IMG/VR virus record: IMGVR_UViG_3300032218_002295
DNA from: an uncultured virus (IMG/VR IMGVR_UViG_3300032218_002295)
Taxonomy: Duplodnaviria > Heunggongvirae > Uroviricota > Caudoviricetes
Length of the DNA: 27,765 nt
Direction: 5' to 3' (one strand)
Position 1 is the first letter of the stretch. Each line of letters begins with the position of its first letter. Made by a program: the position numbers and the translations under genes. The notes under the pieces are model-generated. The model was not told the DNA's origin. It worked only from the letters and a program-made list of their open reading frames with translations, and searched no databases. Positions 350 to 27,765 of the stretch are shown piece by piece.

Positions 350-2335
350 TTATCTACTTATCCTGCGCTTTTTGATTGCACCAACTACTACCGATTTGGC
401 TAGTTGGAGTAGGTCTTTGCCGCCATTGATTCGGGCAAAGATTTCTGCACCATGCTGCAGATCATAGCGTGGCTTACCGTGCTGCGCTATGAACTGGCTG
501 TTTGTGTTGGAGACGTCATTGTATGACGCTTCATCCATGATGAGAACTAGAGTTGTTAGAACTCCACGCTTACCGAGTCGCGTAATGATGTCGTTGTTCT
601 TGGCGGAATCAAAGATACCGTCAGTAATAAGGAACATCATCTTGTTAGCTTTTTGAGACATCATAAAGGTTCGCTCAGCTAGGAGCAACGAATCGTGAGG
701 ATCCGTGCCACCATTACCAAAGATGAACCGATAGTTTGTCCTCTCGGCTTTGTCTGTCTTACGATATGCAGTCTCATTCTTATCATCGAATGCATACACT
801 GTAACCGGACAATCAATACTCTCAAGAGCACGCTTAATAGTCCAGCATGCAATTGAGGCTTTTTGATCATTACGTCCAGAACACATTGAAGACGAACGAT
901 CGATTAAGATAACAGCTTCAATGTCTGTGGAGTCATCCCCCTCAGTCCATTGATCGAAAGCTTTATCGATCTCAGCACCACGCATAACACGTAGAACATT
1001 CAGCTTGCCAGTTGGAGTCTCTCGAAGCCAACCTGGTTCTGAATCATCTTTGAGCTTACGTAGTTCATTAGCAAACTTTTTATAATCCATAAGTGCTGCG
1101 GCTGGAACTCTGGTGCTCTCGAACTTACCGAGTGGTGCATCAGCATCCCAGTTCTCATCACCATGGACGATAATGTTTTGCTTGCGCTTGATATCTTTGA
1201 TAACATCTTTTCTATTGTAAATAGTTTGGAGGTCATCATTTAGTTTGTCATTCAGATCTTTGGGAAGTCCACCCTCACTTTTGACGTGGGTATTACCCCA
1301 GGTCTTGCTAAGGGATTCATTCTTCTGCTGATTCTTTTCACGTTCTTGAATTGCTTCATCAGCAGTCTGTGTAATAGTCTCGCCACTACCTTGAGGCATA
1401 CCACCCGGTGTATTACCAGGAGTAATACTTATAGGACCTTCTCCATCACCTTCGCCACTACTTTCTGTTGGCATACAGCCACCAGTCTGTGGTGTTTCTT
1501 GTGATTGTTCGGCAGGTTCTTTTGGTATGTAGAAAGACTCAGGCTTACCCATTCCATTTGCAACTTTAGCATCACGCTCTTGCGCTTTGCCAGGCTCTGG
1601 TCTACCCTTTTTAATAGGTAAACGAGAGTCGCAACCACCAAGACCACACTGAGGTGGAATATCTAACTGAGATATTACCAAGTCATGGAACTCTTGAATG
1701 AGTTTTTCTGCTCGCTTATAATCCCGAGGGAATGCTAAGCAACGATACTCATTGGTGATGCGTTGAATGTCTGGGATAAGTTCTGGCTTATAGAACAGAT
1801 CTCTGAATGCTTCACGAATACCGACGTCAATGTGTCTACGACCTGCAATGAGAGGATAGTTAGTAAAGGCAGCGTCTGGTGTGCTTTGAAGCCACACTAA
1901 AGCTGCAGTCTGAAGATACGGCATAACACTTGGATACCTAGCACAGAGTAAAGACTCGATGCGTTGATCTTCCAGGATATTGAATGCAGTATAGTAATCA
2001 TTATTGATTACCCACTTTACTAGGTTAGTTCCCTCACGAGGTGTATAGAAATGATGGGCTAGCTCATGGTAGTTGAGGCCAGAGAGCTTAGTTAGCATTT
2101 CCATAGACATATCGCCGATGTATTTTTCGTTGATATATATGTTTTCACCATCGGACCAAGTAACAGCCGGACCATCCGATACAACATTAACGTTGATTGG
2201 ATCGCCTGTGAGGATGCGGTCAGCACCCTCATAGACCCGAGACATAGCTGAGAGCTGTAAAGCTCTCAGCTGTGCCGCTTCGGTCTTAACTGCACTGGAA
2301 CGACGGCTAGACTCTTCATCATCTATATACGCCAT
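350..2335 (-). CDS. CobT-like / VWA-domain protein with N-terminal HEXXH metallopeptidase-like region (partner of the adjacent AAA+ ATPase)
   Basis: NYHELAH (HEXXH) and FNILEDQRIE motifs, an acidic/Gly-Pro linker, and a C-terminal VWA with MIDAS DRSSS, GGT and ITDG. Lies directly downstream of a MoxR-type ATPase. Confidence 0.9.
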   Translation of the reverse strand: MAYIDDEESSRRSSAVKTEAAQLRALQLSAMSRVYEGADRILTGDPINVNVVSDGPAVTWSDGENIYINEKYIGDMSMEMLTKLSGLNYHELAHHFYTPREGTNLVKWVINNDYYTAFNILEDQRIESLLCARYPSVMPYLQTAALVWLQSTPDAAFTNYPLIAGRRHIDVGIREAFRDLFYKPELIPDIQRITNEYRCLAFPRDYKRAEKLIQEFHDLVISQLDIPPQCGLGGCDSRLPIKKGRPEPGKAQERDAKVANGMGKPESFYIPKEPAEQSQETPQTGGCMPTESSGEGDGEGPISITPGNTPGGMPQGSGETITQTADEAIQEREKNQQKNESLSKTWGNTHVKSEGGLPKDLNDKLNDDLQTIYNRKDVIKDIKRKQNIIVHGDENWDADAPLGKFESTRVPAAALMDYKKFANELRKLKDDSEPGWLRETPTGKLNVLRVMRGAEIDKAFDQWTEGDDSTDIEAVILIDRSSSMCSGRNDQKASIACWTIKRALESIDCPVTVYAFDDKNETAYRKTDKAERTNYRFIFGNGGTDPHDSLLLAERTFMMSQKANKMMFLITDGIFDSAKNNDIITRLGKRGVLTTLVLIMDEASYNDVSNTNSQFIAQHGKPRYDLQHGAEIFARINGGKDLLQLAKSVVVGAIKKRRISR

Positions 2336-2347
2336 TATCGTCCTTCT

Positions 2348-3790
2348 CTACTTGTTGTTGGATTTCAGCCAAGCATCGACTTCTTCGCCAATGGTCTCAA
2401 CTGCGGGATCTGTTGCTGTATTCGCTTCGTCTTTATGTAAGCCGAAGTCTGACTTGATATTGTATTCGTGTGTCATGAGGACAAGTGCAACCTTTTCTTG
2501 CTCTTCTTTATCGAAGTGAGCAACAAAGTTAGCAATTGCGAACTCATAATTGAACTGAACAATTTCTTCAAGCTCCATCAACATGTTGGTTGAGATAGGT
2601 GTATCAATCTCACCCTTAGCAGACTCACTGCGTAATTGCTTAGCAATTGTGAGAATTGCCTTGGACTTAACCAACTTGGCTTCTACTTCATCGTCATAAT
2701 CCCATGGAATTTGGATTGTAAAACGATTTCGCATTGCGAAGTTGAGTGGAGTGGTGCCGATGTAATCTGGATTCATAGTAGCAAATACAGTCAGGTCTGG
2801 ATGAGCCTGAATGGTTTCACCATGATGATCCAGAAGAATCAAACAACGACGACCATCAATCAAGGAATACAGGATGGTATAGATCTTAGGTGAGATGAAG
2901 TTCAATTCGTCAAGAATTAAAACACCACCATTACGGACAACGTCAGTTACTGGACCGTCAATCCACTCAAAGCCACCTTTACCGTCTGGAACATATTTTC
3001 CAATCAGTTGGCTTGGCTCAAGAGCAGCATTACCGGATACAGCAGCAAGACGTAGTCTATTTTTTGCAGCCCATGCAATAACAGATGTTGTTTTACCAGG
3101 GCCAGTTGGGCCGTAGATAAGAACTTCACGCTTATTGGCTCGTGCATAGTCGAAGACATCAAAGTCAAGAACACCACCCGTTAGATTACGGTTGATATAC
3201 TTGTCAGCAGCTTCGATAGGGGGAATACTTGCCAGGGCGATCTTGAGTTTGCCGGAAGAATTAACTTCCTCATACTCAACATCCTCAATCACAACGTCAG
3301 CCTGAACGGCGTCAGCGGCGATTGTTTGTGTTGGCGATGCAATGAATGGCGTTTCTTCTTGAGAATCACGTTGACGACGTAAGTCAATAACTTGTGCTTC
3401 TAATGATGTGTCATTGCTGCTGACCTGATCGTGAAGAGATGTGATTCGTTGTGCAACTGAACCAAACTCCTCATCTTTCTCAGCATTCTCATAAGCAGAC
3501 ATTGCCTTTGTAGACAATACAGGGGACCAACCATTCTCACGAATGGCTTGCTCATCTGCTGCTGTAACATGAATGCCAAGCGGCTTAACAGTAATGTATT
3601 CATTAGAAGACATAGTTGTATTCAACAATACAGGCAGAGAAGTTTCTTCCCAGCGGTTGTGTTTCCCCGCTGTTCCGTCTGTTGTGCGTGAATAGACTTT
3701 GGTTGTCCCATCGATAGGAACGATAAGAGTTTGTCGCTTCTTATCTTCCATAGACGGTTCATATGTCTCTACGAACATCGCTATATTCAT
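2348..3790 (-). CDS. MoxR/CbbQ/CobS-type AAA+ ATPase with long N-terminal extension
   Basis: Walker A GPTGPGKT, Walker B VLILDELN, sensor-1 ATMNP, Arg finger AMRNRF and the family-typical EWIDGPV segment. VWA partner is adjacent. Confidence 0.92.
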   Translation of the reverse strand: MNIAMFVETYEPSMEDKKRQTLIVPIDGTTKVYSRTTDGTAGKHNRWEETSLPVLLNTTMSSNEYITVKPLGIHVTAADEQAIRENGWSPVLSTKAMSAYENAEKDEEFGSVAQRITSLHDQVSSNDTSLEAQVIDLRRQRDSQEETPFIASPTQTIAADAVQADVVIEDVEYEEVNSSGKLKIALASIPPIEAADKYINRNLTGGVLDFDVFDYARANKREVLIYGPTGPGKTTSVIAWAAKNRLRLAAVSGNAALEPSQLIGKYVPDGKGGFEWIDGPVTDVVRNGGVLILDELNFISPKIYTILYSLIDGRRCLILLDHHGETIQAHPDLTVFATMNPDYIGTTPLNFAMRNRFTIQIPWDYDDEVEAKLVKSKAILTIAKQLRSESAKGEIDTPISTNMLMELEEIVQFNYEFAIANFVAHFDKEEQEKVALVLMTHEYNIKSDFGLHKDEANTATDPAVETIGEEVDAWLKSNNK

Positions 3791-3846
3791 TTGCCTTACC
3801 CTTTCAGTTTGAGGTTAACTGCATACCTGAATTGATATGCAGGCCG

Positions 3847-3891
3847 TGTGCTAGTTAGGATTCGAACCTAACATTAGCGCCAACCTAGCAC
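3847..3891 (-). ncRNA. Minimal tRNA-like element (acceptor stem + T arm, no anticodon arm)
   Basis: Minus strand reads GTGCTAG-GTTGGCGCTAATG-TTAGG-TTCGAAT-CCTAA-CTAGCAC-A: perfect 7-bp acceptor stem, 5-bp T stem, canonical T loop, discriminator A, no CCA. Confidence 0.75.
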
Positions 3892-3893
3892 TG

Positions 3894-3938
3894 AAAGAAG
3901 AGAAGAGCCAGCGCCGATAGCAGACACGCTGGCCCTTC
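3894..3938 (-). terminator. Terminator-like hairpin upstream of the tRNA-like element
   Basis: Minus strand GAAGGGCCAGCGT...GCGCTGGCTCTTC (13-bp stem with G-U pairs) followed by pyrimidine tract TCTTCTTT. Confidence 0.5.
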
Positions 3939-4100
3939 ACCTACAGATTACTTACTCAATGAAGAAGATACTTTAGTTGTGATATCGCACTTGTACCCCA
4001 CGCTATAGTTCTAAAAAGAATCACCGATAAACAGACGTGCATTCGAATTAGAGACTGCAATGACCGACGTTGCTTACTCCCTGTTTCTCTAATAAAGAGC

Positions 4101-4763
4101 CTAGCCCTCGGTAGGTTCTTCGTCAAGGATGAAGCCGGTTGCAATATCTAATCGCAGCGGCTTTCCATCCCACTCAGTAGGTATGTTTTTACCACCCCAC
4201 TGAATCTTTCCTGTTTCTTTACACGAACTACACGCAGCAATTTCGCGGTGTGGTTCTGAGGTATTATTATTGGTGCAGTGATGAAAGATGCCTATAGATC
4301 TATTATCAAATGTCTTGATAGTTCTATAAGGAGAAGAATCACCATTACAAGTAAAGGTAAATGTTCCTTGACCTCTGCATTTAGAGCAGCGTCTAACCTT
4401 TAGTGGTGTAGTTGGGTCAAAACTACGGTGTAAATAATACTTGCCGTTTTTATAACCTAACTCTTTGAGGTTTGCATACTGGGCAACAACTCTACGAATA
4501 GATGGTCGCATAGCCCGCCAATTGGTTGTGTCGGGCAAGATTACAACACCATTAGGTTTGTATGTTAGAAATACAAAACTATGATAGTTGTATCGCAAGT
4601 GAATTGTTTCTGAATCAATAAGATACAGAGTCAATCCACGGTCATATAAATACCGCTTTTCATCTGGCGTTTGACCTGCTTTTATAAATGCTAAGGCTGA
4701 ATCAAAGTCATGGACTTTAGCGTCTTTATTACAGGGCAGGATTTGTTCAAGATCTACTGGCAA
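4101..4763 (-). CDS. Hypothetical protein with DnaJ-type zinc-finger motifs
   Basis: CSKCRGQG and CSSCKETG (CxxCxGxG-like). AGGAGG SD 6 nt before TTG at 4763, which fits better than the track start at 4811. Confidence 0.75.
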   Translation of the reverse strand: MPVDLEQILPCNKDAKVHDFDSALAFIKAGQTPDEKRYLYDRGLTLYLIDSETIHLRYNYHSFVFLTYKPNGVVILPDTTNWRAMRPSIRRVVAQYANLKELGYKNGKYYLHRSFDPTTPLKVRRCSKCRGQGTFTFTCNGDSSPYRTIKTFDNRSIGIFHHCTNNNTSEPHREIAACSSCKETGKIQWGGKNIPTEWDGKPLRLDIATGFILDEEPTEG

Positions 4764-4773
4764 TATACACCTC

Positions 4774-5091
4774 CTAGATGTCGTGGATCTTTTTCTTGCG
4801 TAGTTTGGCACGTTGCTCTTGTGTCATTCCACCCCAGATACCATAGTTCTGTTCAGTATCAAAGGCAAACTGACGACAGGCGTCGATAACGGGACACTGT
4901 GCACAGATTGCTAAAGCTCTCTGTATTCGAGCGTCTTTAACTTCACCACGCTCCATGTCCTCATAGAAGAAATCATCTCCACCTATTTGATTACATAGGG
5001 CTTGATCTTGCCATTTCCAGTTTGAATATACTGGAGCTGGCATCTTCTGATTGATTAGGGGTGGTTTGTATCTCTTACTTTTCGTAGACAT
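4774..5091 (-). CDS. whiB: WhiB-family (Wbl) Fe-S transcription regulator
   Basis: W..QALC, DFFY, AICAQCPVIDAC (four Cys), YGIWGGMT turn and a basic C-terminus. Start uncertain (5091 or 5100). Confidence 0.95.
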   Translation of the reverse strand: MSTKSKRYKPPLINQKMPAPVYSNWKWQDQALCNQIGGDDFFYEDMERGEVKDARIQRALAICAQCPVIDACRQFAFDTEQNYGIWGGMTQEQRAKLRKKKIHDI

Positions 5092-5341
5092 CGATCTCAA
5101 GCCTCAATACATCTGATGTATCTTGACTTTGGAACAACTTAACTACATTCTTCTTGTCAACTACAATGCCTGAGTCATCCCATCCGTAAGGGGATACAAA
5201 TAGGAACTCACGCTTATCTTCACAAGAAGGGGTTACCATACGGACATCAGCGATGTTATTAAGATCGATAGGTGCGCCGTATTCATAACTGTATTTGCGT
5301 ATTTCACGTAACAATTTACGTGTTTTAATTGCTTTAAACAC
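5075..5341 (-). CDS. Hypothetical protein
   Basis: AAAGGAG SD before GTG at 5341. Overlaps the whiB start in an operon-like arrangement. Confidence 0.75.
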   Translation of the reverse strand: MFKAIKTRKLLREIRKYSYEYGAPIDLNNIADVRMVTPSCEDKREFLFVSPYGWDDSGIVVDKKNVVKLFQSQDTSDVLRLEIDVYEK

Positions 5342-5366: not shown

Positions 5367-5431
5367 TGAGCCTTTTTACCTTAGGTCATGCTCAGGACCA
5401 AGTAGCAGTTTTAATTAACATGCTCAGGTTA
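5367..5431 (-). promoter_or_regulatory. Tandem H-type pseudoknot-like RNA elements sharing loop CCUGAGCAUG
   Basis: Minus strand TAAC-CTGAGCAT-GTTA-ATTAAAAC-TGCT, then GGTC-CTGAGCAT-GACC-TAAGGTAAAAAG-GCTCA. Different stems, same loop, and A-rich tails complementary to the loop. Confidence 0.6.
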
Positions 5432-5524
5432 TTTGTGCAGCGGAAGAGACGATTTCAACACCCAGTGTTTCCCAGTCAAGTCGCTACCCAATGCTATGTG
5501 CGGCCGTGTTTGTGTTGGCGCACG

Positions 5525-5659
5525 TTATTCTGGGCGGGCAAGCTTATCAATGTCAGTGATTAGGTCTTTAACCTGCTCCTGCATTAATTCAAGCTGTTCT
5601 TCCAGAGATGCGAATAGAATATTTAAGTCTTGAACTATTCTCTTGATTTCACTACTCAT
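5525..5659 (-). CDS. Small coiled-coil protein, 44 aa (MSSEIKRIVQDLNILFASLEEQLELMQEQVKDLITDIDKLARPE)
   Basis: Below the ORF-track cutoff. GGAGG SD, ATGA overlap with the upstream stop, and a heptad pattern. Confidence 0.75.
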   Translation of the reverse strand: MSSEIKRIVQDLNILFASLEEQLELMQEQVKDLITDIDKLARPE

Positions 5660-6287: not shown

Positions 6288-6791
6288 TTATTTACGCTGA
6301 GGAGACGATCTCCACAGATGATCACTTGCAGACTTAACATTTATAGCTGCTAAGCCCATTTCAACCAGCACATCATCGATGCGCCATTTCAACTCCTCTA
6401 ACGCACGAGGAGTGAATTTCATAAGTGCAATTTCCTTCTCATCTTGAATCATTAAGAAGGCTGATTCACCATCACTACAGCCGATGGTGTATGCAGTCTT
6501 GGTTTTGAAGACATTGCTCGTATGTGCGAATAGGGGATTGAGCAAGCCATGTCGTTTCCAAGCACCGACAATATCAAGGCAATTAGGTTCATCGCTTGAT
6601 TCTGTGCGGCGCCGGCGTTTGTTTGTGTTGGCAGCACTATTAGCCATATCAATGGCCTCATCTTCATGCTGTGTTATTGATTCGAGCTTGGCTTGGTTAT
6701 CTTTGATGACATCAGGATTAGAATTAATCTCATCCAATTTATCCTCAACCATATCCATAGCCTTGCGACTAGGAGTCTTTCTCTTAGTCAT
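6288..6791 (-). CDS. Hypothetical protein
   Basis: GGAGG SD, ATG coupled to the upstream stop, 167 aa. Confidence 0.8.
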   Translation of the reverse strand: MTKRKTPSRKAMDMVEDKLDEINSNPDVIKDNQAKLESITQHEDEAIDMANSAANTNKRRRRTESSDEPNCLDIVGAWKRHGLLNPLFAHTSNVFKTKTAYTIGCSDGESAFLMIQDEKEIALMKFTPRALEELKWRIDDVLVEMGLAAINVKSASDHLWRSSPQRK

Positions 6792-9353: not shown

Positions 9354-9573
9354 GGCTACCTATCTGGGAATACATACGCTACCAATTTGATAGCGTAGAG
9401 GTATGCCCGTGTGTGGCTGGGAGTCGAACACGCAAAGGGTCGCGCCGTATGGTGAAGCCATACGCCAGAATGTTTATGTTGGAACATCGTTACCGAACCC
9501 ACACGAAGGCAGGACTGAACGGCAGGGCATAACACCCGCTAATGGATAATTTTATGAGATAAAAAAAATACAT

Positions 9574-9602: not shown

Positions 9603-9784
9603 TAGCGGGCTACATCATCAACCGCCGTTCATTATGTATGGTATTGACCACCGATAATGACCCCCATGGGTTAAACGAACGCTGTGAACCATATCTCCAG
9701 GTGAGACAGGCAACCATGACCTATGGTGTGATGGCAGTGGCCTAAAAAATTTCAAGGTCGGGGGAATATTAAGCAGTGGCTTGG

Positions 9785-9793
9785 TGTTATTAT
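9785..9793 (+). promoter_or_regulatory. Extended -10 promoter for hsp20
   Basis: TG-T-TATTAT, followed by a 5' hairpin (TGTCCT...GGGACA) at the expected +1. Confidence 0.5.
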
Positions 9794-9846
9794 TAGCTGT
9801 CCTGCCAATCGGGGGACAAATCAACCTATATCGTCTAAGGAGATAT

Positions 9847-10281
9847 ATGCACATCACTTATGCTCAGAATCAATCTCAAACCTTCAATTCACTATACCCA
9901 GGCTTCACTAAATGGGCAATTGGGTTTGATCCTCTAATTAATACTTTCAATCAGATCTCACAGTCTAAAGATAACTATCCTCCATATAACGTTCGCAAAG
10001 AGGGGGAGCAACACATCCTAGAACTAGCTGTAGCTGGATTTACTAAGGATGAACTAGACATTGAGGTCAAAGAACTTCTACTAACAGTGACGGGCACCAA
10101 AGCCAAGAATGAGGCGGAGTATGTTTATCAGGGCATCTCAGCAAAGAGCTTCTCTCGGGAGTTCGCTTTGGCGGAGTATGTCATCGTCAAGGGAGCCAAG
10201 TTCCAGGATGGTCTACTTACTATCACCCTGGAGCAGGAGCTTCCTGAAGAGAAAAAGGCTAAAACCATCAGTATCGAGTAA
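9847..10281 (+). CDS. Small heat-shock protein (Hsp20/IbpA-like)
   Basis: IGFD, NYPPYNV, ILELAVAGF, YVYQGI...FSREFAL, A.FQDGLLTI and C-terminal IxI (ISI). AAGGAG SD before ATG at 9847 (track start 9781 is too long). Confidence 0.95.
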   Translation: MHITYAQNQSQTFNSLYPGFTKWAIGFDPLINTFNQISQSKDNYPPYNVRKEGEQHILELAVAGFTKDELDIEVKELLLTVTGTKAKNEAEYVYQGISAKSFSREFALAEYVIVKGAKFQDGLLTITLEQELPEEKKAKTISIE

Positions 10282-10372: not shown

Positions 10373-10939
10373 TTGACTACACTTGCTGCTATACAAGGTA
10401 AAGGCTGGTCAGTAATAGGTTGCGATAGCCGTGCATCCGATGAAGACGGACGTTTTATGGAGTTAGCTACTCCAAAGGTCATTGATAATGCTGGAGTACT
10501 CATTGCAGTCTCTGGAGCATCTCGCGGTGGAAACATTACACAGTTCGGATGGAAACCCCCTAAGCCACGTGCAGGCGAAGATCTAGATATCTTTATGACT
10601 AAGAAGTTTATCCCTAGCATGCGTAAGGCTTTCCAGGATGCAGGTTATGATGCTAAGGATGATGGAGATGCTGCTTGGCAGGATTCTAACCTCATTATCT
10701 CTGTAAGAGGAACCCTCTACCCGATCTTTAATGATTACTCTTGGGATAGAGAAGCCCGCAACGTTTATTACGCCGGATCTGGTGGCGACCTTGCAATGGG
10801 TGCATTAGAGATATTAGATTACACAAAAGCAAAAACACCACAGGCCGCCGAAAAACTGCTCCGCAAAGCTATTGAAGCTGCGTGCAAGCATGACATATAT
10901 TCGGGTGGAGAGATTCACACATACATCCAAGAAGCGTAA
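10373..10939 (+). CDS. HslV/proteasome-beta-like Ntn threonine protease
   Basis: M-TTLAAI N-terminal Thr nucleophile, GCDSR (Asp17), Lys near position 33 (TPKV), YYAGSGG, and C-terminal HDIYSGGEI. Confidence 0.88.
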   Translation: MTTLAAIQGKGWSVIGCDSRASDEDGRFMELATPKVIDNAGVLIAVSGASRGGNITQFGWKPPKPRAGEDLDIFMTKKFIPSMRKAFQDAGYDAKDDGDAAWQDSNLIISVRGTLYPIFNDYSWDREARNVYYAGSGGDLAMGALEILDYTKAKTPQAAEKLLRKAIEAACKHDIYSGGEIHTYIQEA

Positions 10940-16547: not shown

Positions 16548-16560
16548 TCTCAACACAAAC

Positions 16561-16593
16561 AAAAAGCCCCCAGCTAATAACTGGGGGCTTTTT
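16561..16593. terminator. Bidirectional intrinsic terminator
   Basis: AAAAAGCCCCCAG-CTAATAA-CTGGGGGCTTTTT between convergent genes. Confidence 0.9.
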
Positions 16594-25210: not shown

Positions 25211-25244
25211 TTGGGGAGGCGGGGCTTGAAATCCGCCTCCCCAA
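25211..25244 (+). terminator. Stem-loop after capsid gene (partial terminator or mRNA stabiliser)
   Basis: TTGGGGAGGCGG...CCGCCTCCCCAA 12-bp stem; no U tract. Confidence 0.65.
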
Positions 25245-25270
25245 CATAAACATTTAGGAGAATAATAATC

Positions 25271-25768: not shown

Positions 25769-26866
25769 GTGGCAAATATTCAAACCCTAGCCAATAGGCT
25801 TAGAGCCGAGATTGGCGATATAGGTAGATTCTTTGATGAGAATTTCACTGGCGATGGCCGCACCCGTAGATTCCAACTTTCTGTTTCTCCTGTAAAAGGA
25901 TTATCTCTTAAAGTTTTAGTAAATGGGGTAGATGTATCTGCCACCACTGCTGTTGAAGAAGTTAGCGGATTATTTGAACTAGCTAACGTTGCAGCTGATA
26001 ATGCAACAATCGAAGTATCTGGCACACAGTATAAATACTTTACTGATGTTGAAATCCAGCAATATGTAATTAATGCTTTTTATGAGCATGCTTATACCAC
26101 TACCGATTCAAATGGCAGTTTAGCAACTATGGCCTCCCTACCGGTTATTGATGAGTACCCATTAGTAATCCTAGCTACAAGCATGGCCCTCTATACTCTT
26201 GCTACAGATGCTGCATTTGATATTGATATTATTTCACCAGATGGTGTTTCTATTCCTAGATCTGAGCGTTACCGCCAGCTTATGGAAGTAGTACAGCAAA
26301 GAAAAGAACAATACCGTGAGCTTTGTTCTTTGCTCGGTATTGGTATGTACCGTATTGAGGTTACTACTCTACGCCGCATTAGCCGACGCACAAATCGCTA
26401 CGTACCTGTATATCGTCCACAGGAAGTTGACGACGGTTCTATTCCACAAAGAGTTTATTTATCTATGCCTACTTATGGAGATATTACCCCTCCATCATCA
26501 GTTCCAACAAAAGACTTGTCTATGTACTCAGGAGATGATTTCTGCCTAGACTTGGCTTTTGACCATGATTTAACTCACTATACAGCCCTCTCTCAAATTC
26601 GTTTATATCCCCAGCTTCCAGCTAATCAAGTCGGACCATTACTACTAGCTACCTTTGAAATAACTAAATCTGCCTCTATATCAGGGGGTATTTTAGATAA
26701 ACTTAGCTTATACTTACCTAGTTCTGTTACAGCAGACTTGCCTCGCACAGCATATTGGGACCTACAACTTACGGACAATACTACCGGACACGTTAAAACA
26801 TACCTCCAAGGCAAGATCTTTACCAAGGCTCAGGTAACAACAACTAACGGAGATTTCCATGTGTAA
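25769..26866 (+). CDS. Probable head-completion / head-tail adaptor protein with extra beta domains
   Basis: [11 protein letters not shown]...[11 protein letters not shown] adaptor-like helices interrupted by an FTGDG beta domain. C-terminal [10 protein letters not shown]...AYWDLQL...TYLQGK domain. Position after capsid. Confidence 0.7.
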
Positions 26867-27765
26867 TATTTGCGGTGACCCAAGCAATAATTGCGAAGAG
26901 CCACGCCTTCTTGGTATTTCCGGTGATGGAAATCCAAGCGTTATTCGTTTAGGTTTAGATTCAGGATCAATGCCTTCGGGCTCAACAGGCCCTATGGGAC
27001 CTACAGGTCCAATTGGACATACTGGACCTACCGGTTCTACTGGCCCAACTGGCCCATCAGTTACTGGTCCTACAGGCCATGCTGGCCCAACAGGTGTAAC
27101 TGGCCCAACAGGTTCACGTGGTTTACAGGGAGATCCAGGTCCTACAGGACCTCAAGGTGCTACAGGACCTCAAGGTAACCTAGGACCAACGGGTGCTACT
27201 GGCGCCGCATCAACTGTTCCAGGCCCAACTGGTCCTCAAGGACCTGCAGGTTCTACGGGTGTTGCGGGCCAATCAATTACTGGACCTACTGGTGCACGTG
27301 GTGCAACCGGCCCACAAGGTGTTCCTGGTGAACAAGGTGTTGCAGGTGCAACAGGCCCTACAGGTGCAACTGGTTCACAAGGAACAGCTGGACCTACAGG
27401 TGCAACAGGCACTAGAGGTTTACAGGGATTAGAAGGACCTACAGGTCCTCAGGGCGATCAAGGTTCACAAGGAACAGCTGGACCTACAGGTGCACAAGGC
27501 GCACGTGGTGCTACAGGATCTGCGGGTATTCAAGGTGTTCAAGGTGTAGCTGGAGATACTGGTCCTGCTGGACCAACAGGCCCTAGAGGTCTTGTTGGAC
27601 CTACAGGCGGTGTAGGACCTACTGGTGCAACTGGTGCTGCAAGTACAGTTCCTGGACCAACAGGACCTACCGGTGCTCAAGGTACCTCAATTAATATTCA
27701 AGGAAGTCTTGCAAATTCTGGACTTCTATCTACAATCACAAATCCACAACGCAATGATGCTTACA
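26859..27765 (+). CDS. Collagen-like (Gly-Pro-Thr-rich) fibre protein, truncated at window end
   Basis: Not in the track because it has no stop. GGAG SD, ATG at 26859 ([19 protein letters not shown]...), then Gly-X-Y triplets from ~26979 to ~27690. Confidence 0.92.
27372..27494 (+). repeat. 33-bp exact direct repeat within the collagen region
   Basis: GGTTCACAAGGAACAGCTGGACCTACAGGTGCA at 27372-27404 and 27462-27494, in frame and 90 nt apart. Confidence 0.9.

Follow-up and report, generated by a model that had tools for sequence, protein, structure and literature searches.

Introduction

The leader of a phage ATPase gene contains what looks like half of a tRNA, and the question is whether this element is what is left of a tRNA gene, a site that acts in DNA, or an RNA signal with a function of its own. 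The locus lies in a 27,765-nt stretch of DNA from an uncultured virus of the Caudoviricetes (IMG/VR record IMGVR_UViG_3300032218_002295), and this whole stretch is referred to as the window. An earlier note on this DNA, made from its letters, had described a tRNA mimic and proposed either a processing switch that frees the Shine-Dalgarno (SD) sequence of the ATPase gene or a released mini-tRNA decoy.

Structure of the element and its leader

The 45-nt tRNA-like fold at 3847-3891 on the minus strand, upstream of the phage ATPase gene, is made of 7+5 bp, all of them perfect (Table 1), and has no D stem, anticodon arm or variable arm. This confirms the mimic without an anticodon arm of the earlier note and adds the missing D stem to its description. 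An alternative 6+6 stack is possible through a G3872-C3854 pair. When a descriptor was used that called for the T loop, a T stem of at least 4 bp, an acceptor of at least 5 bp, a stack of at least 11 bp and a linker of 7-20 nt, the window gave 1 match and 200 dinucleotide shuffles gave 0. A strict descriptor run over 202 loci (750,882 bases) matched only members of the mini-tRNA family described below. The unconstrained minimum free energy fold of 3780-3960 (z = -4.05) shows the T arm, both neighbouring hairpins and the outer helix, with the caveat that it pairs the linker with 3813-3818 and does not draw the full acceptor stem. That linker pairing is not conserved among relatives.

Table 1. 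Features of the element, its leader and the adjacent genes in the window
Feature	Position	Strand	Details
Upstream GC-rich hairpin GGGCCAGCG/CGCTGGCTC	3905..3935	(-)	9 bp including one G-U, 13-nt loop
Pyrimidine tract ending CTTTCA; 5' strand of outer helix P1, anti-SD-like	3892..3900	(-)	CTTTCA = 3897-3892
Acceptor stem, 5' strand GTGCTAG	3885..3891	(-)	
Linker GTTGGCGCTAATG	3872..3884	(-)	13 nt, TGG/GG inside, D-loop mimic
T arm TTAGG / TTCGAAT / CCTAA	3855..3871	(-)	
T stem TTAGG	3871-3867	(-)	
T loop TTCGAAT	3866-3860	(-)	
T stem CCTAA	3859-3855	(-)	
Acceptor stem, 3' strand CTAGCAC	3848..3854	(-)	
Discriminator A (3847), then C	3846..3847	(-)	CCA not encoded
Hairpin 2 CTGCATATC/GGTATGCAG	3819..3842	(-)	9 bp including one G-U; begins 4 nt past the discriminator
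TGAAAGGGTAAGG, 3' strand of P1, overlapping the SD region	3794..3806	(-)	
AAA_5 ATPase (MoxR/CbbQ/NorQ/CobS-like), 480 aa	2348..3790	(-)	Gene served by the leader
Partner protein, 661 aa, C-terminal VWA domain	350..2335	(-)	Pfam VWA_2 3.9e-4 (below cut-off), CobT_C 0.15

The acceptor stem, a TTCRANY T arm, G53-C61 and the discriminator are shared with tRNAs, but just 13 nt separate the acceptor stem from the T stem, and a cloverleaf with D and anticodon arms is not formed. ARAGORN found 0 genes in the window and Rfam RF00005 gave no match at E up to 10. Thus the Rfam and ARAGORN searches suggested in the earlier note do not call the element, while the covariation check suggested alongside them was positive, as set out in the next section.

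The ATPase matched Pfam AAA_5 (9.1e-20) and phrog_249 (1.2e-45), and Midasin, NorQ, CbbQ and CobS among PDB entries; its VWA partner gave no PDB match and no TROVE domain even at E up to 10. No ORF of at least 40 aa overlaps 3791-3955. RNA coverage was taken from contigs of four metatranscriptome runs (X7, X11, X12 and X13), with pieces on 3152-3385, 3500-3650 and 3687-3837 in X7 and on 3944-4190, 3972-4189 and 3951-4180 in X11-X13, and 3838-3943 is spanned by none of them.

The hairpin downstream of the element is present as first noted. The upstream hairpin, whose loop bears the motif GTCTGCTATCGG (3925-3914), had been called terminator-like, but it is not a canonical terminator: a terminator scan called 0 terminators, with 3905-3935 covered, and the hairpin, kept in clade A relatives and in L001, is missing in clade B, a second lake-phage clade in which the element directly follows the upstream stop codon. 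The CTTTCA/TGAAAG pairing is also present as described, and TGAAAG (3806-3801) adjoins the purine-rich SD region ahead of the ATG at 3790-3788. One relative (L002) has TTCTCA/TGAGAA at this place, which amounts to two compensatory changes. However, among 14 leaders the anti-SD helix is strong in seven, weak or moderate in five, the window among them, and absent in two. An SD-freeing switch is thus only partly supported, and the helix is not a general feature.

Conservation and covariation

Thirteen leaders, picked via the N-terminus of the ATPase and not via the RNA, were aligned. In this alignment 97.3% of cells pair and compensatory double changes were found in 8 of the 12 pairs, compared to 25-47% paired in slid controls. 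The 33 distinct hits of a model derived from the leaders gave a similar picture (98.9% of cells pair, double changes in 10 of 11 pairs), and five of the six T-stem pairs show compensatory changes. The T loop of the 13 leaders fits TTCRANY with G53 and C61; G53, C56, A58 and C61 are invariant and T55 is nearly so, and GG is present in the linker of 12 of them. The single pair within the linker of the 41-nt form covaries as well (GC 13, CG 7, AU 1; n=21). Among family copies the linker follows the consensus A-N-Y-GGCA-N-AC, although the constancy of linker and acceptor sequence is partly imposed by the search patterns used.

The flanks are constant as well. G1 was found in 31 of 32 copies and both A73 and C74 in all 32, and position -1 is an A in 25 of 32, which stands opposite A73 and hence is unable to pair. 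The base after C74 varies (T 17, G 12, C 2, A 1; n=32), and CCA could be read in no trailer. In 27 of 32 members the element is followed within 45 nt by a hairpin with a stability of -7 kcal/mol or better, and the sequences of these hairpins are unrelated. On this comparative evidence the stems of the mini-tRNA are maintained by selection, and the earlier argument that intact stems speak against simple decay is borne out by the covarying pairs.

The element is not found everywhere that the ATPase is. The T arm is replaced by a plain hairpin, with the outer stem retained, in several relatives (L006-8, L142 and L161), a different hairpin takes the place of the element in the L005 leader, and of 21 distinct stretches upstream of ATPase genes across the wider family, 15 contain nothing comparable. 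These element-free leaders suggest that the ATPase can be expressed without the element.

One explanation is that the element is a decaying tRNA of the phage, left without function after an internal deletion. The D-loop-like linker would fit such an origin, as would an acceptor and trailer that resemble phage tRNA-Met, a tRNA-Met slot upstream of the leader that is variable (a full tRNA or none, with a mini form in a similarly placed gap), and the loss of the T arm at the ATPase leader of some relatives. However, the compensatory changes largely refute this reading, and the element persists among phages with ATPases only 57% identical. Across lake phages and those of Streptomyces and Mycobacterium it is invariably placed between cistrons in one and the same layout. 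The earlier note had named a full tRNA at the same slot in relatives as a sign of recent deletion, and none carry one. A remnant would account for the origin of the element and not for its maintenance, and we regard it as very improbable. A named full-length ancestor was also sought: 34 tRNAs in viral contigs share the acceptor ends of the window, and the 10 that were inspected were Gln, Trp, Gly, Met, Lys, Cys and Leu. These assorted identities mean that no ancestor can be named.

It is extremely improbable that the element acts at the level of DNA, whether as an attP core copied from a host tRNA (its 3' half), as a site bound by proteins or as a cruciform. The usual att core in tRNA genes consists of the T arm and the 3' strand of the acceptor, both of which are here, but the 5' acceptor strand is present too. 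Of 185,579 species genomes (genome_contigs), none contained an exact match to the 21-nt 3' half, and a full-length tRNA pattern with the acceptor and T loop of the window had 0 matches there too. The host tRNA 3' end or att core raised in the earlier note thus had no match in these searches. No integrase family was found among the 38 ORFs of the window that were scanned. A DNA-level site also fits poorly with eight copies in one genome on one strand and with G-U pairs that on the element strand fit RNA read in the gene sense, and only that strand.

A family of mini-tRNAs between early genes

By its sequence and predicted fold, the window element belongs, as a 45-nt variant, to a conserved family of mini-tRNAs that measure 41-45 nt and have no anticodon. 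Members, which in actinobacterial phages occupy gaps between early genes, have an acceptor of 5-7 bp, a linker with GG, a T arm of 5-6 bp and a discriminator A followed by C. By the model derived from the leaders, Streptomyces phage Endor2 has 8 copies, Mycobacterium phage Konstantine has 6, and 7 are carried by a record whose sequence, across the compared stretch, equals that of Streptomyces phage Danzina. The family is thus spread over lake phages and phages of Streptomyces and Mycobacterium, and its place between cistrons follows one layout in all of them. The earlier note had tied the element to the AAA+/VWA operon, and this does not hold, since it recurs among many unrelated early genes of Streptomyces and Mycobacterium phages.

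The Endor2 and Konstantine copies that were checked all occupy gaps between early genes, a short way past a stop codon, and the usual order is stop codon, mini-tRNA, hairpin (in most copies), ribosome site and start. The 8 Endor2 matches are on one strand and fill 8 of the 11 gaps of at least 60 nt in the 6.5 kb examined. The distance from stop codon to element is 6-15 nt in seven of them and 109 nt in the other, and from the end of the element to the next start it is 32-51 nt. GenBank lists one of these copies as an 83-nt "tRNA-Arg". Among 10 gaps in Konstantine, at least 2 hold a T-arm element recognised by eye beyond the 6 model matches. The anti-SD helix is not a feature of the Endor2 copies, where the stop codon is so close in most cases. 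Given this and the patchy occurrence of the anti-SD helix among leaders, SD unmasking is at most a clade-level addition.

Related contigs show the same arrangement with other tRNA-like elements. Three of them lie within one 2.3-kb operon stretch of G002, each past a stop codon. A genuine tRNA-Met in G004-G006 is found in a matching layout of hairpin, tRNA, A-CGG and hairpin, and G002 has a mini form that shares the acceptor stem of this tRNA-Met in a similarly placed gap. The tRNA-Met slot upstream of the leader varies, with the full tRNA in G004-G006 and the corresponding window segment (5380-5500) without a tRNA-like element.

The window from 3300 to 4600 had no blastn match among GenBank phages, the record G001, the nearest one, gave no match, a scan of viral contigs with an SD/start pattern returned 19 stretches, of which 7 were the ATPase leader and all in known contigs, and a clade-A pattern search found only 3 contigs, all known. 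A literature search on these elements, which covered main texts and took in PMC7650747, PMC10656467, PMC10732093 and PMC3029335, found no description of this mini-tRNA family.

The regular layout could also reflect a structure that acts uncleaved in the mRNA, either as an intercistronic stabiliser or insulator or through an elbow read by the ribosome or a tRNA-binding factor for re-initiation. The fixed spacing in Endor2, both to the next start and to the close stop codon of 7 of the 8 copies, is consistent with this, as are the plain stable hairpin that stands at the same place in some relatives and the connection that P1 makes between the element and the SD region in the clade of the window. 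However, a generic structure has no need of the T loop, G53-C61, the linker GG, an unpaired A73 or an invariant C74. We know of no bacterial precedent for a re-initiation device of this kind, and consider an uncleaved role decidedly unlikely.

Comparison with known tRNA-like systems

In animal mitochondria, tRNAs in polycistronic RNA separate the genes and are recognised by enzymes of tRNA processing. These are working tRNAs, whereas the phage mini-tRNAs cannot decode. Processing of mascRNA by RNase P and RNase Z sets the ends of the flanking RNA, and mascRNA/menRNA (from MALAT1 and MEN-beta; RF01684) are likewise tRNA-like modules within a longer transcript. However, mascRNA is eukaryotic and retains a stem like an anticodon arm, which the mini-tRNA is without. 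The window had no match to RF01684, and two relatives reached 26.9 and 21.6 bits, short of the gathering score (42.5 bits), so the element does not belong to this family. In the TMERs of murine gammaherpesvirus 68, a hairpin directly follows a tRNA-like unit. There the hairpins are pre-miRNAs, and that of the mini-tRNA stands before an SD and start codon. The C4 antisense RNA of phages P1 and P7, reportedly described by Hartmann et al. in 1995, is said to be an RNase P substrate in the leader of the operon that it controls. C4 and the mini-tRNA are both phage-borne and embedded in an operon leader, but C4 is single-copy, works by antisense pairing and does not mimic a T arm or elbow as the mini-tRNA does.

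The closest likeness in placement is to t-elements, which Forner et al. 2007 (PMC1920247) present as tRNA-like elements considered to guide cleavage by RNase P and RNase Z, from which the 5' and 3' ends of plant mitochondrial mRNAs arise. Their GGTTCRANYCC T-arm motif is also present in the window, as GGTTCGAATCC, and both are non-canonical tRNA-like folds in longer transcripts adjoining coding regions. The mini-tRNAs are intercistronic, on the gene strand and past stop codons, the longer transcript being putative. RNAs of t-elements with non-encoded C or CCA-like tails have been observed (PMC1920247). The t-elements as described there (PMC1920247) are organellar and form non-canonical cloverleaves, whereas the mini-tRNAs are phage-borne with a bacterial host, and at 41-45 nt they have no D stem or anticodon arm, are repeated gap after gap, and are putative cleavage sites.

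Hairpins of an acceptor stem and a T stem-loop are efficient substrates of RNase P (McClain et al. 1987, as relayed in PMC11143913). In its anatomy the element agrees with the earlier statement that acceptor and T arm make a minimal substrate for tRNA end processing. The synthetic substrates (McClain, Guerrier-Takada and Altman 1987, as relayed in PMC11143913) likewise stack acceptor and T stem-loop coaxially, have their cleavage site at G1 and leave the discriminator unpaired, but the mini-tRNA is natural, carries a D-loop-like insert of 11-13 nt and encodes no CCA. Of the parts of a minimal RNase P substrate, G1 and an unpaired 5' leader are present and the stack of about 12 bp measures 12 bp for the window element and 11 bp for the 41-nt form; in place of a 3' RCCA end there is A, C and then T, G, C or A.

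The tRNA-like domain of tmRNA and YrlA share with the mini-tRNA an acceptor-like stem, a T arm, a D-loop-like GG and the lack of an anticodon arm, and in M. smegmatis RNase P cleaves YrlA, to which CA is added in vivo (PMC4201824). Membership in either group was rejected. The tmRNA identity pair G3-U70 is absent, with G3-C70 in 13 of 13 leaders, there is no tag frame, and ARAGORN called no tmRNA. As for YrlA and Y RNA, no Ro60/TROVE gene lies nearby, no Ro-binding stem was found, and no Rfam family matched at the element.

A proposed role in segmenting early RNA

What a model has to account for is the fold, its conservation and covariation, the repeated intercistronic placement and the invariant flanks. 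We lean towards a signal in cis at which host RNase P and/or RNase Z would segment the polycistronic early RNA, and consider this probable on balance. In this model the early region would be transcribed into polycistronic RNA, in which each mini-tRNA may fold into a coaxial acceptor/T-arm helix with a tRNA-like elbow. The host enzymes that process tRNA ends, which would require just the acceptor/T-arm half of a tRNA, could then bind the element and cut 5' of G1 (RNase P) and/or past the discriminator (RNase Z). Such cutting would part adjacent cistrons and may change RNA stability and translation: the downstream mRNA would start with the conserved hairpin, which may shield its 5' end, and the upstream RNA would terminate in the mini-tRNA or, in the clade of the window, in the GC-rich hairpin. 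In that clade an RNase P cut would also remove the pyrimidine strand that pairs with the SD of the ATPase and so relieve a partial masking. Cutting by RNase P in Endor2 would expose the 3' end of the upstream cistron, and this favours RNase Z or another mode there.

Two observations weigh against this model. One is the lack of an encoded CCA together with the 11-bp rather than 12-bp stack of the 41-nt form. The other is that linker and acceptor are conserved beyond the apparent needs of RNase P or RNase Z, which hints at another reader or a function in trans.

Such a function has been considered in the form of a released mini-tRNA that is itself the product. It would be an abundant, probably CCA-tailed RNA without an anticodon, made from many copies per operon. 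Its role in trans would be that of a sponge or decoy, aimed at host factors able to recognise an acceptor end and elbow, such as tRNA-modifying or CCA-adding enzymes, RNase P, or defence toxins acting on tRNA 3' ends. The up to 8 near-identical copies per genome fit this idea, as do the retention of the elbow-forming GG and the conservation of linker, A73 and C74 beyond the apparent needs of simple processing, and stable or CCA-tailed products are reported for t-elements and M. smegmatis YrlA (PMC1920247 and PMC4201824). However, part of this constancy comes from the search patterns, there is no known target, and the single copy in the window and in each of its closest relatives is a poor fit for a dosage-dependent design. 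The strict intercistronic placement, followed by hairpin, SD and start, points to a role in cis. A decoy is therefore unlikely, though it deserves to be kept in view.

Significance

The reading of the mini-tRNA as mRNA punctuation would take in SEA-PHAGES genomes that have long been studied, such as Konstantine and the Camvirus/BD Streptomyces phages. Laboratory hosts allow direct tests, with M. smegmatis and Konstantine or Streptomyces and either Endor2 or Danzina. If the reading is true, it would explain the regular 80-100-nt gaps of early operons, correct mis-annotations such as the "tRNA-Arg" of Endor2, and supply a compact processing module, driven by host enzymes, for synthetic operons in Actinobacteria. 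The linker GG and the covarying lone pair would serve as a natural minimal model of the tRNA elbow.

A wider proposal is that actinobacterial phages use a mitochondrion-like punctuation by mini-tRNAs, in which cuts by both RNase P and RNase Z would segment and activate cistrons and at the same time release a CCA-tailed pool acting in trans, with host tRNA-directed enzymes or anti-phage toxins on acceptor ends as its targets. Taken together, these parts make a quite unlikely whole. A punctuation role for tRNA-like elements has so far been documented in organelles, in archaea and in eukaryotic long non-coding RNAs. If the cuts proposed here are real, a natural and repeated minimal tRNA half would serve as mRNA punctuation in bacteria and their phages as well.

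Results

The 45-nt mini-tRNA in the leader of the ATPase gene, a tRNA-like fold without an anticodon arm, is under selection. Relatives of the leader were sampled through the ATPase protein and not through the RNA, and in the resulting alignment of 13 distinct sequences (A3) 97.3% of cells are paired. The covariation score of A3 was 0.639 compared with 0.220 in shuffles, none of 500 of which scored as high, and when the structure was slid by 1-3 columns just 25-47% of cells were paired. The covariation in relatives by which the earlier note had wanted the fold to be judged is thus present, with both-sided changes in 8 of 12 pairs, and its argument that intact stems speak against simple decay holds as well: covariation contradicts a functionless tRNA relic, which we consider very improbable. 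The T stem of A3 occurs as TTAGG/CCTAA, TCAGG/CCTGA, ACAAG/CTTGT, CAAGG/CCTTG and CAGGG/CCCTG, G53, T54, C56, A58 and C61 are invariant, and T55 is present in 12 of 13 sequences, as is the linker GG. The exception is locus L001, where the linker has AG and the T loop has TGC for TTC; this joint change, a single case, is only suggestive of the tRNA-elbow contacts of G18/G19 to U55/C56. Among 33 distinct matches to R1, the covariance model built from A3, 98.9% of cells are paired and double changes are seen in 10 of 11 pairs, in an alignment that, being fitted to R1, is biased towards it. In 21 pattern-selected 41-mers, where the search pattern prescribed the acceptor, the GG and part of the T loop, which are uninformative for that reason, the lone linker pair (columns 7 and 13), which closes a 5-nt Y-G-G-C-A loop, is GC 13 times, CG 7 times and AU once, and is never unpaired. 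G-U pairs place the polarity of the element on the sense strand.

All stems that the earlier note had described were found in place (see table). ARAGORN reported no tRNA or tmRNA in the window and Rfam had no match at the element, either for the whole window at gathering thresholds or for 3500-4300 with E up to 10, so neither of the tools suggested by that note recognizes the mini-tRNA. A descriptor of the fold, which asked for a T loop, minimum lengths of 4 bp for the T stem, 5 bp for the acceptor and 11 bp for the stack, and a linker of 7-20 nt, matched once in the window, and 200 dinucleotide shuffles gave no match. Free MFE folding of 3780-3960 yields an unusually stable structure (z = -4.05; equaled by 0 of 200 shuffles), and in it the linker is paired elsewhere, a pairing that relatives do not conserve, and the acceptor stem is not drawn whole.

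Features of the window and of related loci
Feature	Record	Coordinates	Strand	Basis or remark
Upstream GC-rich hairpin	window	3935-3905	minus	sequence
Pyrimidine tract with CTTTCA at its end	window	CTTTCA 3897-3892	minus	sequence
Acceptor strand GTGCTAG	window	3891-3885	minus	sequence
13-nt linker GTTGGCGCTAATG	window	3884-3872	minus	sequence
T stem TTAGG	window	3871-3867	minus	sequence
T loop TTCGAAT	window	3866-3860	minus	sequence
T stem CCTAA	window	3859-3855	minus	sequence
Acceptor strand CTAGCAC	window	3854-3848	minus	sequence
Discriminator A	window	3847	minus	CGGC next, then second hairpin
Second hairpin CTGCATATC/GGTATGCAG	window	3842-3819	minus	sequence
TGAAAG, then purine-rich SD region	window	TGAAAG 3806-3801	minus	sequence
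ATG of 480-aa ORF	window	3790-3788	minus	sequence
WhiB gene	window	4774-5100		basis for phage context
HSP20-family protein	window	9781-10281		window ORF scan
Protein with weak C-terminal proteasome-subunit family match	window	10373-10939		window ORF scan
Collagen-repeat protein	window	26859-27764		window ORF scan
12-mer CCAACACAAACA	window	499-510, 3323-3334, 5507-5518, 6620-6631	minus	copy count
12-mer CCAACACAAACA	window	9471-9482	minus	copy count
12-mer CCAACACAAACA	window	16550-16561, 25241-25252	plus	copy count
tRNA-like elements	G002 (L187)	3294-3336, 4537-4616, 5565-5605
Variable tRNA slot upstream of leader	L185	1204-1278		compared locus

The window comes from a tailed phage infecting an actinobacterium; it also encodes a lysozyme-like protein, and its other arm carries terminase, SPP1-type portal and capsid genes. 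The gene 3' of the leader encodes a MoxR/CbbQ/NorQ/CobS-like AAA_5 ATPase (Pfam 9.1e-20; phrog_249 1.2e-45) with PDB matches to Midasin, NorQ, CbbQ and CobS, and is followed by a gene for a protein of 661 aa that matches VWA weakly at its C-terminus and lacks a TROVE domain. The approximately 310 nt from the conserved upstream gene, encoding 236 aa, to the ATPase hold no ORF common to relatives. Metatranscriptome contigs from three studies (X11, X12 and X13) cover only 3944-4190, 3972-4189 and 3951-4180, respectively, and, compared with the window, show two substitutions and, at 4013 and 4071, two indels of 1 nt; the indels argue that the ORF at 3956-4144 is non-coding. The stretch 3944-4190 takes in the final 90 nt of the 236-aa gene plus the non-coding DNA up to the hairpin; a locally abundant RNA is possible there.

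Two other repeats were seen in the window. The 12-mer CCAACACAAACA has four exact and three one-mismatch copies (0.24 expected); the exact copies all share the strand of the leftward genes, two fall within the ATPase and VWA genes, and the copy at 5507-5518 forms a hairpin loop whose equivalent hairpin in relatives lies directly 5' of tRNA-Met. GTCTG-N1-2-TATCGG occurs only twice, at 4024-4036 and 3914-3925 (minus), with a separation of 111 nt. Both sites lie upstream of the ATPase, and one is within the loop of the hairpin that precedes the mini-tRNA. Relatives keep the two copies and also a CTATAGCGTGG box (3998-4008, minus), whose distance from the motif varies from 16 to 28 nt; the motif could be a protein operator or promoter element.

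The ATPase search gave 8 viral loci and an alignment-based search 78, including 26 close relatives (51-77% identity), and a metagenome scan with a degenerate N-terminal-peptide pattern gave 72 stretches, 16 of which encode this ATPase. Among metagenome leaders of sufficient length for a judgement, 13 of 15 have the mini-tRNA and the other two a variant. The 26 close viral loci comprise 21 distinct upstream stretches: four have the mini-tRNA, one has the variant, one is not comparable, and 15 have no counterpart, the ATPase directly adjoining the upstream gene or the stretch containing nothing but plain hairpins. ATPase leaders fall into two sequence groups. Elements of group A (window, L002/L143, L003/L004/L141/L145) read GTGCTA(G)...(C)TAGCAC-A and span 42-45 nt. 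Those of group B (L001, L124/125/127/170, L129/133/149/155, L147) read GCGTG...CACGC-A, are always 41 nt and lie a few bases 3' of the upstream ORF's stop codon, without a hairpin before them. Variant leaders (L006-8, L142, L161) retain an outer stem, GTGGCTAG/CTAGCCAC in L006 (about 2905-2955) and ATGGCTAG/CTAGCCAT in L142, and have a covarying 7-bp hairpin in place of the T arm, set between conserved internal-loop strands (T/C)AGGG and TCTTG. The L005 leader has another hairpin.

In the window R1 matched the mini-tRNA site only (45.7 bits; next best 9.3), and four related 99-105-kb genomes have one strong site each; G002 has an additional, weaker one (25 bits; GCGCTG-linker-TGTGG-TTCGATT-CCACA-CAGCGC-A). 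Patterns of the group B form matched 33 and 29 stretches of viral contigs, up to two per genome and mostly in 48-51-kb genomes. These are Streptomyces phages: a 541-nt stretch from them matched 46 GenBank records, all Streptomyces phages, including Endor2, phiCAM, Amela, Verse and Sitrop. R1 was also run over whole phage records, and found eight matches in Endor2 (MT711979.1), seven in a record of 50.8 kb that over 3 kb is 100% identical to Streptomyces phage Danzina, six in a 69-kb record 99.4% identical to Mycobacterium phage Konstantine and four in a 49.5-kb low-GC metagenomic phage, all on one strand in each, and one strong match in a 95-kb phage.

Placement between genes is repeated. Across the 6.5 kb of Endor2 examined, 8 of 11 gaps of at least 60 nt hold a copy, which starts 6-15 nt past the stop codon in seven cases and 109 nt past it in the eighth, with 32-51 nt between its end and the next start; the acceptor stems covary (GCGTG/CACGC, GGGTG/CACCC, GCCTG/CAGGC, GCGCG/CGCGC). 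In Konstantine 6 of 10 gaps have an R1 match, and at least two further gaps have a T-arm element of the same design with different stems. Konstantine (L315) gaps 38840-38961, 40568-40653 and 43371-43519 also contain a palindrome type, CTTGGGCTAGCC(C/T)AAG, and a conserved AGAACGGAC-like block lies directly 5' of most start codons. The GenBank record of Endor2 has an 83-nt "tRNA-Arg" (L273 3210-3292 = MT711979.1 44378-44460) that overlaps the upstream CDS by 34 nt and of which only the last 41 nt are the mini-tRNA; the annotation in Sitrop is identical.

The immediate flanks were counted over 32 distinct family members. The discriminator A and the C after it are invariant (32/32), the first base is G in 31, the base before it is A in 25, and 27 have a hairpin of -7 kcal/mol or stronger no more than 45 nt downstream. 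The base following the C is T in 17, G in 12, C in 2 and A in 1, so CCA is not encoded. This pattern defines a module of stop codon, mini-tRNA, A-C, hairpin, SD and start. A released mini-tRNA that acts in trans, for example as a decoy or sponge, would fit the copy number and the strongly conserved linker and A-C end, whereas the window has a single copy, and we regard it as unlikely. An att core or DNA-level role is scarcely credible, as the repetition is strand-specific, no integrase family is present among 38 ORFs scanned, and two scans of 185,579 species genomes were empty; a match to a host tRNA 3' end was what the earlier note had named as a sign of an att core.

The anti-SD helix (P1), which pairs the tract just 5' of the element with the SD region, is predicted in all group A and several group B leaders, and CTTTCA/TGAAAG in the window versus TTCTCA/TGAGAA in L002 amounts to two compensatory changes. 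Ranked in 14 leaders against other 14-mers of the same upstream DNA, it is outstanding in seven (no more than 0.7% of 14-mers as good), unremarkable in the window (25% as good) and four others, and absent in two. It is no feature of Endor2 gaps, in which stop codon and element are only 6-15 nt apart in 7 of 8 cases. The switch freeing the SD that had been proposed earlier therefore stands only in part: the predicted pairing, the compensatory changes and the seven outstanding leaders support it, whereas the window itself, the two leaders lacking the helix and Endor2 do not. For the window's clade the helix may contribute to translational control; SD unmasking is not the core function of the mini-tRNA. 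An uncleaved structural or translational role for the element appears decidedly unlikely.

Discussion

Three related genomes (G004, G005, G006) have canonical tRNA-Met(CAT) genes on the ATPase strand, at 1.4-2 kb upstream of the ATPase, and their flanks match those of the mini-tRNA (hairpin, tRNA, A-CGG, hairpin). About 2.2 kb upstream of its ATPase, G002 has a second mini-tRNA, which has the acceptor stem of tRNA-Met and lies in a similarly placed gap. A third G002 element (4537-4616) has a 5-bp acceptor, TGG linker, 7-bp T stem and A then CGG, with a 9-bp hairpin where the anticodon arm would be; all three belong to one operon, each 3' of a stop codon. The tRNA slot varies, and in the window the homologous stretch (5380-5500) has no tRNA-like element. 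Given the shared flanks and acceptor stem, the mini forms look like descendants of phage tRNAs that lost the D stem, anticodon arm and variable arm. The part retained is exactly what end-processing enzymes read.

tRNA-like processing marks are known from mascRNA and mitochondrial tRNA punctuation. The idea is also established for plant mitochondrial t-elements, at which RNase P and RNase Z cut to give mRNA ends (PMC1920247). Hairpins of acceptor and T stem-loop serve RNase P well as substrates (McClain et al. 1987, as described in PMC11143913), and a tRNA-like Y RNA of M. smegmatis is cleaved by RNase P and has CA added in vivo (PMC4201824). Rfam 15 has no family for the element, and the literature searched, including passages of phage genome papers, does not mention the mini-tRNA family.

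We lean towards a model in which each mini-tRNA marks a site where host RNase P, RNase Z or both cleave the early polycistronic RNA. The hairpin that starts 2-4 nt past the discriminator would then lie at the 5' end newly made on the downstream mRNA and would protect this RNA. In gaps of the Endor2 type, the RNase Z cut alone would leave structured ends on both products, and in the window's clade the upstream GC-rich hairpin could shield the 3' end made by RNase P.
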